From sequence record PQ014731.1: a stretch of 64,000 nt of DNA; one strand, given 5' to 3'. Numbering within the stretch: position 1 is the first letter of the stretch; each line of letters opens with the position of its first letter. The notes under the pieces are model-generated. The model was not told where the DNA came from and did not search any database. It saw only the letters and a program-made list of their open reading frames with translations. The position numbers were made by a program, and so were the translations under genes. Positions 18,827 to 22,219 of the stretch are shown here, piece by piece. This stretch comes from Escherichia phage VB-EcoM-WM.

Positions 18827-21800
18827 ATGAGCATGTGGTCGTTCGATTTTGAGTCATCCGGTTTGCTGGAAGACCCAGATCTTTATTATCACTGCGGTCT
18901 GTTTAAAGAGTTGAATAAGAACCGTTTTATGCTGTTCCTTCCTCTAAATGACCGCACACACTACTCCGAGGAGGATATAGAAAAGGCTAAGAACTTCATT
19001 CTGGCAAAGAAAACTCTTTATAAAGATTTTGAAGTTCGCATAGCAGATTTTTCGGAGTTGGAAGGTTGGCTTACAGGAAATTCTGACTGGTCACCAACAG
19101 CTTTGAACTGCCATAACTGCTACAGTTATGACTTTATGCTGATGGAAAGATTATCCGGTATTCATTTTGATATGTTCCGTGATCCTAAATGTATGGGGAC
19201 TATCAACGACCACCAGGTTAACCTGTTTGATACGTTGGCAATGAGCCGAATCTTGTGGCCTGATCGCCCTTTACCAAAAGGTTGTCCGGACTCTGTATTC
19301 AACCCGGTTACTAAGAAAATGCAGCCTGTTGGTCCTCACGGCCTTATGGCATGGGGCTACGCTCTTGGTAACCAGAAAGTTCAAATTGATGACTGGCGCG
19401 ATCTTCCGCTGTGGAAGTATGTGGATCGTGTATTCGAGGACGTTATCATCCAGGAGCTGCTCTGGAAAGAGCTGGTAGCGGAATCAAAAGGTGTATTCTA
19501 CGGCAAATCTGACATGCAGAACTTTATGTACGATCCTGCCAAAGAGAAGCCGAAAGGGTTCAAGAAGATCACCTGGAAGAACGCATTACGCCGAGGCATG
19601 CTGCAGCACTTCCTGATGGAGCTGCAGGCCCGTCAGGGTGTGTATTTCGACATAGACGGGGCTATTGCTTTACGTGACCGCTGTGATGCGTGGATGAAAG
19701 AGATCGCTGATCGTGTTGAACCTCAACTTCCTTTAAAAGAGTTATCAATATCTCAGCGGCCTAAATTCCCTGAAAAGCCGTTCAACCAAGAGGGGACAAT
19801 TTCCAATAATGGCTGGAAATGGTTAAAAGATAAGCTTGGCTATCCTGTAGACATGAGCGCTTTAGAGTTCAAAGCCCCACCTAAGCGAGCATTTACCTCC
19901 ACAGGAGATGTCAGTAAAATGGGGATAAAATGGTGTGAAGAGATGGGCTGCAAAGACCCAGACAAGATGGCTGATTTCTTGAGAGGTTATATTAAGGGCA
20001 CCTCCACACCACAACCTTTACCTAAAGAGCTGATGGATCAGGCAATAAGCGATCTGCAGCAGAAGCGAATGCCTGACTGCAAGATACCTATGAAAATCAG
20101 CAATCAGGACGATATTAAGCGATACCTGATCAGTGCTGGTTGGCTTCCGACAATGTGGAGAACTAAGGATGTAACTAAAGACAGCAAGAAGAAAGCTCTA
20201 CCTGATGCAGATGTTGATGCACGAGTATATGCATATATGGACGAGCTTTTAGAGTCAGAGTATTGTGACCTGATTATCAACTTCTGGAACAAAACTGATG
20301 CTAAGTTCCAGACAACCGTGCACAAGTTCCGAAGCTTTCCTAACTCCGAAAGGATTAAAAAGGAAGTATTCGGGAAAATACGTAGAAAAGCCAGGGCACT
20401 TATTACTTCTCCGCAACTGAAAGATACGTTTGGACACCTATGTCCGAATCTTGAAAAATTGAACGGAGAGATGGCTAAAGATATCGTCTTGTGGTTATCA
20501 TTGCGAAACCGCAGATCGGTCCTTGATCCAATTAAGGAGGATAAGGTTGATACTGGTCTTCTTAATCACCCACGTTTGAAGATTGACCATAAGCTTCCTG
20601 CTAAAAGCTCTGGATTAACAAACACTTCCAGACAGAAACACAGTATTTGTGCAAACATGCCTAAACCATCTCCTAAAGTGGTTATGGGTAAAGAGATGCG
20701 TAGTCTGTGGGGTGTTCCTCCAGGATACTTTGAGATCGGTATTGACGGGTCCAACTTAGAGCAGCTTATCGGGGCTTGGGGTGCCTTTGAGTTCGACAAC
20801 GGCTTGTATTATGATGTTGTAAGTAACGGCGATGCACACTGCTATTCAGGAGATACACAAATTCTCACAGAGAAAGGGTGGATAAGGTTTGAAGATCTTG
20901 ATCAGGAAACGCAAGTGTTCCAGTACGATCACAACACCTCGTCAATGAGCCTTGTTACTCCACTAAACTACGTTAAGCGGAGTTATTGCGGGGATATGTA
21001 TCATTTCCACAACAGCAGCGTGGATTTTATGGTTACAGATCAACACAGAATGCTGACTGTTGACCACAGAAGCAATAAATTGTTTGAGGATTTGGCAAAA
21101 GATCTGAAAGCAGGCAAAGGGTCTAATTCAGGAAGAAGGTTTATCCATGCGGCAGAGTTTTATGGGAATACAACCTTATCCCCTGCTCAGATTAATTTAC
21201 TTATTGCTATCCACGATGACGGAAACTTGCATACAAATAAAGATGGAAGCAGCGTATGCAGGGTCCAGGTTGGAAAGGGGAGAAAAGTTGCAACGCTTTT
21301 GGATACCTTTTCTGCTCTAAATCTTGATTATACAGAGCAGTGCGGGAAAACAACCAAAGGAGGTTTGCTGGCAAGAAGATTCCAATTCCACGTGCCGTCT
21401 TGGGTGTTTAAGTTTTTGGACAGCAACAAAGATTTCACCTATAGTTTGATGGATCTTGATAAAGAATCTAAAAACCTGTTTATAGCTTCTTTATCTAACT
21501 GGGACGGGTGGGTATCTTCCGAAGGTGGAAAAGTTATTTACTACTCCCAGGCTGAGTGCAGGAAGAAATCTGTAGAAGTGGTGTCTGCCTTGGCTACTCA
21601 GTGTGGTTTACGGAACAACACGGTGACAATTCACAGAGAGGGTCGTGCCGTGCAGCACAGAATTACAATTGGTAGCAAACAGAAAGCAGGTTTACTAACA
21701 CTGGATAAAGATCTTGTCGAGGTGAGTAATTCTTTGGTTTATTGCGTCACCGTTCCCTCTGGAGCGATTATTGTAAGGAGAGGTGGCAAGGTTGCAGTGT

Positions 21801-22219
21801 GCGGCAATTGCAATAACGCCAAAGCCTACTCTGCTGTAGCAGGTAAGGAAATTTCCCGTAACGATGGTAAGCCTGTCACGTATGGGGTTATGTACGGGGC
21901 ACAAAAAGATAAAGTTGCAGACATGCTGGATATCTCTCCAGAGTTGGGGCAAAGGGTAATCGATGCGCTTTGGGATGCCAACCCCGGTCTTAAGGGGCGT
22001 AAAGAGGATCTGGAGAAATTCTGGGAAGCAACTGGTAAGAAGTTTATCTACTCTTTTGATGGTCATGCCATCTGGACCCGATCTAAACACTCTTTACTTA
22101 ATGCATACCAACAAAATGGCGGTGCATCGTTGTGTGATTTAGTTGGGATACTCATGCACCACCAAATGGTGAAGCGTGGGTGGTACGATGAAGGTGTTCG
22201 TCGTATTATTTATTACCAT
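18827..22219 (+). CDS. DNA polymerase family A, exon 1 (includes in-frame intein)
   Basis: Exo I FDFESSGL; motif A IGIDGSNLEQL; motif B/O-helix KPVTYGVMYGAQ; exon ends at ...RIIYYH, completed by exon 2 to give motif C HDE. Confidence 0.85.
20840..21808 (+). mobile_element. intein in DNA polymerase (323 aa) with LAGLIDADG-like endonuclease motifs
   Basis: Starts CYSGDTQILTEKGWIRFEDL (block A), block B VTDQHRMLT, C-terminal VYCVTVPSGAIIVRRGGKVAVCGN then +1 Cys; LLIAIHDDGNL and FIASLSNWDGW motifs; sits between motif A and motif B. Confidence 0.75.

Follow-up and report, generated by a model that had tools for sequence, protein, structure and literature searches.

A LAGLIDADG-type intein in the family A DNA polymerase gene of an rV5-like coliphage

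The DNA analysed here, referred to as the window, is a stretch of 64,000 nucleotides (nt) from Escherichia phage VB-EcoM-WM (PQ014731.1), an rV5-like myovirus of the genus Vequintavirus. Our interest was in an insert of 323 codons in its DNA polymerase gene, which the original prediction, made from the letters of the window, had taken for an intein carrying a LAGLIDADG-like endonuclease. The gene is laid out as follows (all on the + strand; a slash within a sequence marks a splice junction or an insertion point):

18827-22225, +: polymerase open reading frame (ORF), 1132 amino acids
18827..20839, +: N-extein, i.e. exon 1 through the codon of His671 (the equivalent of T7 gp5 His506), holding motif A (IGIDGSNLE)
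20840..21808, +: predicted intein (969 nt, 323 codons), with a LAGLIDADG homing endonuclease domain embedded in a HINT splicing domain
21809..22219, +: C-extein, the rest of exon 1, from motif B (RNDGKPVTYGVMYG) through the motif C His (by alignment with T7 gp5 R518/K522/Y526 and H653)
21809..21853, +: +1 Cys codon and a C-extein tract of about 45 nt travelling with the intein; its divergence from alleles lacking the intein is 47%
22220..23061, +: group I intron of 842 nt, which separates the motif C codons for His and Asp (YYH/DEY)
22360..22866, +: HNH homing endonuclease ORF inside the intron, 168 amino acids (PHROG 59, E = 6e-38; weak match to Pfam HNH_3)
23062..23415, +: polymerase exon 2 (DEYQLQV... 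through the stop codon), which joins exon 1 directly in the intron-less phage NHEP1

An in-frame insert of 323 amino acids ending in VAVCGN and followed by Cys had been predicted, and both the translation and an exact 969-nt length difference to relatives bear this out. The product of 20840-21808 starts with CYSGDTQILTEKGWIRFEDL and ends with VAVCGN before the Cys, and in a BLAST comparison with the intein-less phage HeinrichReichert the match ended at 20839, up to which the N-extein is 98.0% identical at the nucleotide level, and picked up again at 21836, the two sequences differing in length by exactly 969 nt. The 4.7-kb polymerase region matched 124 phage records, mostly of Escherichia phages, at 92-97% identity; six of these GenBank records carry the intein and 118 are without it. 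Most relatives aligned over only about 79% of the query, as two pieces, and their typical exon-1 product has 809 amino acids, which equals 1132 − 323. At the junction the intein-less alleles read ...SNGDAH/QNNAEAYTK... (in HeinrichReichert DNA ...AACGGGGACGCACAC/CAAAACAATGCTGAGGCATAT...), and the window and the six GenBank phages ...SNGDAH/(CYSG...VCGN)/CNNAKAYS.... In none of the six carriers is the intein annotated, the gene being named DNA polymerase or hypothetical protein, and the exact intein sequence within the 1132-amino-acid product was seen only in assemblies from public sequencing runs that bear no annotation.

For the site within the polymerase, insert and intron were removed in silico and the resulting protein of 925 amino acids was aligned with T7 gp5, with which it is colinear over T7 residues 468-658 (E = 1e-15). 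Motif A (T7 Asp475) comes before the junction and motif B (Arg518, Lys522, Tyr526) after it, and motif C (T7 His653-Asp654-Glu655) is restored only once exon 2 is joined. The junction itself follows directly on the equivalent of T7 His506 (GDIH/TKNQ in T7 versus GDAH/CNNAK in the window), a residue that in the T7 structure contacts the incoming deoxynucleoside triphosphate (dNTP). The alignment thus agrees with the predicted location: the insert is between motifs A and B, in the fingers subdomain of a T7-like polymerase of family A and adjacent to a conserved His of the active site.

Relatives of the insert were found in large number. In tblastn searches against phage genomes 525 records were obtained, in 508 of which the whole 324 amino acids aligned, at 25-30% identity and as internal segments of unrelated proteins; among the host proteins were NAMPT (Staphylococcus phages), the beta subunit of ribonucleotide reductase (RNR; Tenacibaculum, Pseudanabaena), NrdA (T5-like Salmonella phages), thymidylate synthase (ThyX), PhoH, primase, RtcB and, in cluster C mycobacteriophages, a nucleotidyltransferase. 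An exhaustive HMMER search gave 7458 proteins at E<=1e-3, of which 2136 had E<=1e-10, always with the match as an internal segment; the zero result at E<=1e-3 of a word-indexed protein search with the intein is a sensitivity artefact and says nothing on rarity. As the occurrence of one mobile element in many host proteins is a hallmark of inteins, the insert is read as an intein. A profile built from 134 relatives matched the window copy end to end (E = 5.8e-96) and detected no second intein of the same family in the window. When 34 relatives were compared with Pfam, LAGLIDADG_3 was found in 7/34 and Intein_splicing in 6/34 (best E 2.5e-8). Against the PDB, phmmer with the insert found the AceL NrdHF intein (6zgq; E = 7.7e-6, with the block B region aligned), and the family profile recovered 6zgq at E = 6.8e-14 together with the Spl DnaX mini-intein.

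Members of this clade also occupy the same site, D-x-H/(T/S/C)-x-N-A, in metagenomic PolA sequences (P0006, P0013, P0020, P0044, P0056, P0072). These are like the window's intein in clade (up to 37% identity) and in insertion point, and Pfam DNA_pol_A resumes at the identical profile position, but they belong to other polymerase lineages and mostly have a native Thr or Ser at +1 (T7: Thr507). Since Thr or Ser at +1 is native in many PolA, these same-site cases need no extein substitution. A second PolA site, PN/QNIP, is occupied by clade inteins as well, and a literature search found neither a described vequintavirus intein nor a PolA intein at the site of the window.

The predicted fold points in the same direction. 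AlphaFold from the single sequence reached a predicted local distance difference test score (pLDDT) of 35, and a usable model was built on an alignment of 34 sequences (AF2; pLDDT 95, predicted template modelling score 0.92). Foldseek against the PDB placed TliVMA on top (E = 9.5e-15, template modelling (TM) score 0.70), then PI-SceI, PI-PfuI and PhoVMA, with intein-endonucleases overall at E 1e-14 to 1e-9 and TM 0.6-0.7. The central domain matched I-DmoI and I-SceI (E about 1e-6), and the splicing domain matched 6zgq with 26-27% identity and a root-mean-square deviation of 1.3-2.2 Å over about 105 columns. By four independent lines, namely the PDB sequence match, the occurrence in many host proteins, the Pfam matches of family members and the fold, the original prediction of an intein with a LAGLIDADG endonuclease holds, and window 20840-21808 is, with high confidence, a bifunctional intein consisting of a HINT splicing domain with an embedded LAGLIDADG homing endonuclease. 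That it would instead be a native, lineage-specific polymerase domain, or an in-frame endonuclease insertion that does not splice, is hardly credible: nothing but the in-frame status speaks for it, whereas the insert is lacking in the 118 intein-less records, the genes of which are otherwise 92-98% identical, homologous inserts sit in unrelated enzymes, and a HINT fold with terminal Cys...Asn/Cys is present. A native domain was rejected on the presence/absence polymorphism against intein-less relatives; in the comparison with intein-free homologues that had been proposed as a check of the prediction, the insert is missing and the exteins are colinear with T7 gp5.

The HINT splicing domain comprises about residues 1-100 and 286-323 of the intein and the endonuclease about residues 101-285. 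The motifs are listed below, with family frequencies counted across the 134 relatives:

20840..20878, +: block A (CYSGDTQILTEKG) with the N-terminal nucleophile Cys1 (130/134); T10 and G13 invariant
21020..21055, +: block B (VDFMVTDQHRML) with Thr66 (B:7), His69 (B:10), Arg70 (B:11) and Met71 (B:12)
21197..21223, +: LAGLIDADG motif 1, LLIAIHDDG, residues 120-128, with the putative metal-binding Asp127 (Asp in 130/134)
21272..21289, +: basic motif GKGRKV (K-x-R-K in the family) of the endonuclease domain; K146 in 118/134, K149 in 131/134
21479..21508, +: LAGLIDADG motif 2, FIASLSNWDG, residues 214-223; W221 in 129/134, D222 in 130/134
21731..21790, +: block F (SLVYCVTVPSGAIIVRRGGK) with Cys302 at F:4 (Cys in 134/134) and Pro306 (119/134), without the block F His
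21791..21808, +: block G, VAVCGN, with Cys321 (G:5), the penultimate Gly322 (G:6) and the terminal Asn323

Block B, predicted as TDQHRML, and the two LAGLIDADG-like motifs were thus found where they had been placed. TDQH corresponds to residues 66-69, and His at B:10 as well as Thr or Ser at B:7 occur in all 134 relatives. Asp222 of LAGLIDADG motif 2 is the second putative catalytic residue, and in the AF2 model the two motifs form helices 115-127 and 208-221, each followed by beta-hairpins, in agreement with the alpha-beta-beta-alpha-beta-beta-alpha core of LAGLIDADG endonucleases, whose two helices each end in an acidic residue. At the C-terminal junction the family has Thr (55), Ser (38) or Cys (19) at G:5 (112/134 together), Gly at G:6 in 122/134, Asn (118) or Gln (15) at G:7, and Cys (101), Ser (27) or Thr (5) at +1. 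The window copy retains C1, T66, H69, C302, N323, C+1, D127, D222 and K149.

Three groups of known inteins are instructive for comparison. PI-SceI, PI-PfuI, TliVMA and PhoVMA share the two-domain architecture (Foldseek E 1e-14 to 1e-11, TM 0.60-0.70) and, like the window intein, have Cys1, TxxH, a terminal Asn and a +1 Cys, but they are only 11-14% identical, have 360-450 amino acids and come from archaeal and yeast hosts; PI-SceI has an extra DNA-recognition region. These four have the canonical penultimate His in block G and a residue other than Cys at F:4. A full-length homologue of the window intein is the RDF intein of mycobacteriophage Bethlehem (gp51/gp52 phosphoesterase; BLASTP E = 2e-12), which likewise has Cys1, T-x-x-H-R in block B, V-W-C-L-R-V-P (block F VWCLRVP) and a C-terminal Gly-Asn (T-G-N/S), and whose splicing halves also flank a LAGLIDADG-type endonuclease. 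The differences are Ser at +1 and Thr at G:5, where the window has Cys at both, and they extend to identity (21%), host protein (a metallophosphoesterase) and host phage (an actinobacteriophage). The closest solved HINT domain is AceL NrdHF-1-1 (6zgq), with which the window intein shares an NHRM-type H-R-M in block B, the F:4 Cys followed by x-x-V-P, the penultimate Gly, the terminal Asn and the lack of His at F:13 and G:6; its C-[LV]-[ST]-V-P motif corresponds to C124...P128 (PMC7891396). In contrast to the contiguous window intein with Cys1 and a LAGLIDADG domain, AceL NrdHF is naturally split, begins with Ala1, resides in RNR beta and has no embedded endonuclease, a free-standing GIY-YIG gene being located between its halves.

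These comparisons also settle how the penultimate residue is to be seen. The original prediction had correctly noted Gly instead of His at this position (Gly322) and considered it an unusual splice junction, which it is not, as Gly is the norm of the clade and has been studied experimentally (PMC5050341, PMC7891396). Inteins without penultimate His are known to splice (PMC5050341, PMC7891396), and mycobacteriophage class 1 inteins are often without it (PMC5050341). The Bethlehem RDF intein, the endonuclease of which is toxic in E. coli, splices efficiently with a penultimate Gly, and exchange G316H slowed the reaction with accumulation of precursor (PMC5050341). Similarly, G145H abolished the activity of AceL NrdHF, in which Arg69 (B:11) contacts the C-scissile carbonyl (PMC7891396).

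By its signature, the window intein would be assigned to class 1. Definitions of class 3 demand the absence of an N-terminal nucleophile (PMC2807308, PMC7891396), and membership in class 3 was rejected because Cys1 is present (130/134 in the clade); of the class 3 triplet WCT at B:12/F:4/G:5, the window residues Met71, Cys302 and Cys321 match the F:4 Cys only. AceL NrdHF is a proven class 3 intein with Ala1, the nucleophile Cys124 at F:4 and the triplet MCT (PMC7891396). One may therefore ask whether Cys302 makes the first attack, via a class 3-type block F branched thioester, or acts redundantly with Cys1, which would make this a class 1/3 hybrid clade. In favour of this, Cys at F:4 is conserved more strictly than Cys1 (134/134 against 130/134), G:5 is Thr, Ser or Cys in 112/134, and the nearest solved HINT domain is the class 3 AceL NrdHF, which shares S/T-x-x-H-R-M, C-[LV]-[ST]-V-P and T-G-N and is also without both C-terminal His; in addition, some metagenomic PolA members of the clade apparently have no nucleophile at position 1 (P0009, P0012, P0057). 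We nevertheless consider the proposal improbable, as a dispensable Cys1 would leave its retention here and in 97% of the clade without explanation; besides, block B is of the class 1 TxxH type, B:12 is Met and not Trp, and G:5 is Cys and not Thr. Moreover, the related Bethlehem RDF intein was handled as a class 1 intein (PMC5050341), only Asp is more frequent than Cys at F:4 among inteins in general (PMC4031507), and both published definitions of class 3 exclude an N-terminal nucleophile (PMC2807308, PMC7891396). Cys302 is equated with Cys124 of AceL NrdHF by motif and spacing, since phmmer with the C-terminal 49 amino acids against the PDB did not recover 6zgq and thus gave no alignment. The clade is very large and mostly phage-borne, combines the class 1 Cys1 with the invariant F:4 Cys of class 3, and has lost both His that usually drive Asn cyclisation. 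That it uses a dual-nucleophile or class 3-like branched pathway is a doubtful proposition; if true, the clade would link class 1 and class 3 in evolution, and members seemingly without Cys1 would be explained.

Tandem arrangements were observed in several metagenomic sequences of the clade. P0009, P0012 and P0057 are PolA fragments with two tandem clade inteins at the same D-x-H site: the upstream full-length intein seemingly starts without Cys, Ser or Thr (K/A/S-x-P..., with the N-boundary set by arithmetic), and its end ...GN abuts Cys1 of the downstream mini-intein, so that in the upstream copy the clade may have a naturally occurring intein of class 3-like type. Among P0005, P0014, P0019, P0037 and P0003, several contain three or four clade inteins, some of them back to back. 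P0003 is a UDG-exonuclease-PolA fusion of 2020 amino acids with a clade intein at PN/QNFP and a second intein with an HNH domain.

Whether the window copy is active was approached via the ratio of nonsynonymous to synonymous substitution (dN/dS) between it and five other vequintavirus copies. The ratio was about 0.08 for the intein overall and for its endonuclease part, 0.05-0.07 for the N-terminal and 0.12-0.14 for the C-terminal HINT part. As dS in the intein is 0.54, the purifying selection on both activities is real, and the low ratios in the splicing and endonuclease parts argue for an active element. Since the insert lies in the active site of a replicative polymerase, splicing would also have to occur for the phage to be viable, and from these features of its sequence the intein is probably active. 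The polymerase would first be made as a precursor, which is expected to be inactive. Cys1 (or possibly Cys302) would attack the His671-Cys1 bond with the help of Thr66 and His69, the N-extein would be transferred onto the +1 Cys, Asn323 would cyclise without a penultimate or block F His, and an S-to-N shift would yield ...SNGDAH-CNNAK.... In the cyclisation step Arg70 (B:11) may help instead; that it substitutes for the missing His is a reasonable inference by analogy with AceL NrdHF.

Several points weigh against an active, bifunctional intein. The window copy is without both the F:13 and the G:6 His, the usual helpers of Asn cyclisation, and the proposed substitute, Arg at B:11, is found in just 72/134 relatives. 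Curated hidden Markov models (HMMs) reached the window copy below threshold, with Hint_2 at E = 0.021 (15.6 bits versus a cutoff of 28.4) and TIGR01445 at E = 0.004 (18.1 bits versus a cutoff of 24.5), and both protein splicing and DNA cleavage by this copy are what we infer. Of the HMM search suggested for verification, the part on Hint and LAGLIDADG families succeeded in Pfam via the relatives, but not for the window copy itself. In the scans of the window copy with Pfam, NCBIfam and PHROG no LAGLIDADG model gave a direct match, the other matches were only to host-protein families containing inteins, and the endonuclease segment by itself had no match in PHROG. One could thus think of a decaying relic, derived from an intein but with splicing, endonuclease activity or both dead in the window copy. 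The sub-threshold HMM scores and the absent penultimate His would fit this, as would HDDG in LAGLIDADG motif 1 versus the clade consensus QADG. We regard it as very unlikely, because a non-splicing insert in the dNTP site of an essential polymerase should be lethal, the catalytic positions are all retained, stops and frameshifts are absent from seven independent copies, and dN/dS is about 0.08 in both domains at a dS of 0.54. Loss of the endonuclease activity alone in the window copy is possible.

Returning to the intein as an active element, its distribution suggests mobility. The sequence directly downstream differs between alleles, with 21 mismatches to intein-less alleles in the first 45 nt downstream and three in the 100 nt upstream. 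The tract reads QNNAEAYTKVAGREVS in all intein-less and CNNAKAYS(A/S)VAGKEIS in all intein-bearing alleles, a difference of six amino acids including Gln-to-Cys at +1 that is common to both intein sublineages. The pattern is compatible with one-sided co-conversion, the donor being a diverged polymerase, or with a recoding that supplied the +1 nucleophile and destroyed the endonuclease site. The window N-extein is closer to that of the intein-less HeinrichReichert (98.0%) than to those of intein-bearing phages (93.9-96.8%). The window intein is 88% identical to the six other copies, and compared with phage Mangalyan dS is 0.54 in the intein versus 0.17-0.22 in the flanking exteins. Along the intein, nucleotide identity to the six GenBank copies falls from 93% in the N-terminal part of HINT to 88% in the endonuclease and 78% in the last 38 codons (21695-21808; dS 0.8-0.9), and is back up to about 96% in the C-extein, which suggests either a separate sublineage of the intein in the window or recombination at its 3' end. 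In the proposed homing cycle the endonuclease would cut intein-less polymerase alleles of co-infecting relatives, and during repair the intein would be copied across along with the roughly 45 nt of extein that follow it, and with them the Gln-to-Cys exchange at +1. Indirect indications that the window intein may home in this way are its scattered occurrence (6/124), exteins whose similarity does not track the intein, and the one-sided 45-nt tract.

The second element in this gene, a group I intron, had also been predicted, and is confirmed by its exact absence from NHEP1, the splice-site bases and the restored motif C. NHEP1, which is intron-less and intein-bearing, joins 22219 directly to 23062. 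The edges, ...CAT/AAATAA...CTATTG/GATGAG, show a T preceding the 5' splice site and an intron that ends in G, and the exon join gives ...IIYYH/DEYQ... (IIYYH-DEYQLQVPDTPK), by which the HDE of motif C is restored in comparison with T7 gp5. The joined coding sequence is annotated in the record of phage HeinrichReichert (BASEL). Rfam Intron_gpI (RF00028) matched 22210-23011 over its full model (1-253) with 29.6 bits (E = 1.6e-4), short of the 50 bits set as gathering score, and with a 510-nt insertion in the alignment that holds the ORF. As the intron splits motif C of an intein-bearing gene, an active polymerase needs one splicing event at the RNA and one at the protein level. Intein, intron and HNH gene assort independently among near-identical phages. 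All three are present in the window and Mangalyan; JEP1, YP-6 and 241Ecol014PP have intein and intron with the HNH ORF replaced by 14-69 nt; NHEP1 has the intein and no intron; and most other relatives have intron and HNH gene and no intein. In GenBank records of relatives, exon 2 appears as a separate gene named DNA polymerase A or hypothetical protein (Mangalyan 5734-6090, JEP1 5267-5575, also YP-6 and 241Ecol014PP), and 241Ecol014PP has an additional free-standing HNH endonuclease gene right after exon 2 (5044-5691).

In Pectobacterium phage CB7 (Certrevirus) the introns of the polymerase gene were found to splice by reverse transcription PCR, and NrdA and NrdB each contain an intein and an intron (PMC7344957). 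With this precedent, two kinds of self-splicing elements in one phage gene, to which the original prediction had drawn attention, are not new (PMC7344957). CB7 NrdA and NrdB are like the window polymerase gene in that one replication or nucleotide-metabolism gene of a member of the Vequintavirinae contains a LAGLIDADG intein as well as a group I intron with an HNH gene, but the CB7 polymerase gene has two introns and no reported intein where that of the window has one of each.

Upstream of the polymerase ORF the window contains a further gene:

16690-18768: primase-helicase ORF

From about 27.9 to 56.3 kb the genes are small throughout, with no ORF of >=250 amino acids in this long stretch. 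ARAGORN detected no tRNA genes in the 64,000-nt window, nor did any Rfam family attain its gathering score there; a match to snR75 in the same scan was dismissed as chance. Among the records matching the polymerase region, 16 are named 'Campylobacter phage' (host C. jejuni), with about 96% nucleotide identity in those listed, which is odd given the distance between the hosts; they may be mislabelled or contaminating rV5-like phages.

The element in the window is a bona fide and probably active LAGLIDADG intein of a well-populated and partly characterised phage clade, and it has gone unannotated in the GenBank relatives; the original prediction was correct but the find is fairly ordinary, and an intein specialist would find none of these results unexpected. 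With the intein unannotated and exon 2 usually entered as a separate gene, polymerase length and identity are mis-stated in these coliphages, which are therapeutic candidates. The independent assortment of the elements makes these phages a convenient natural system for homing and co-conversion, the more so as some isolates of the genus have been grown on E. coli K-12. Finally, with Cys1, Cys at F:4 and Gly-Asn at the C-terminus, the chemistry of the clade stands between class 1 and class 3, and a coliphage member would be easy to test.

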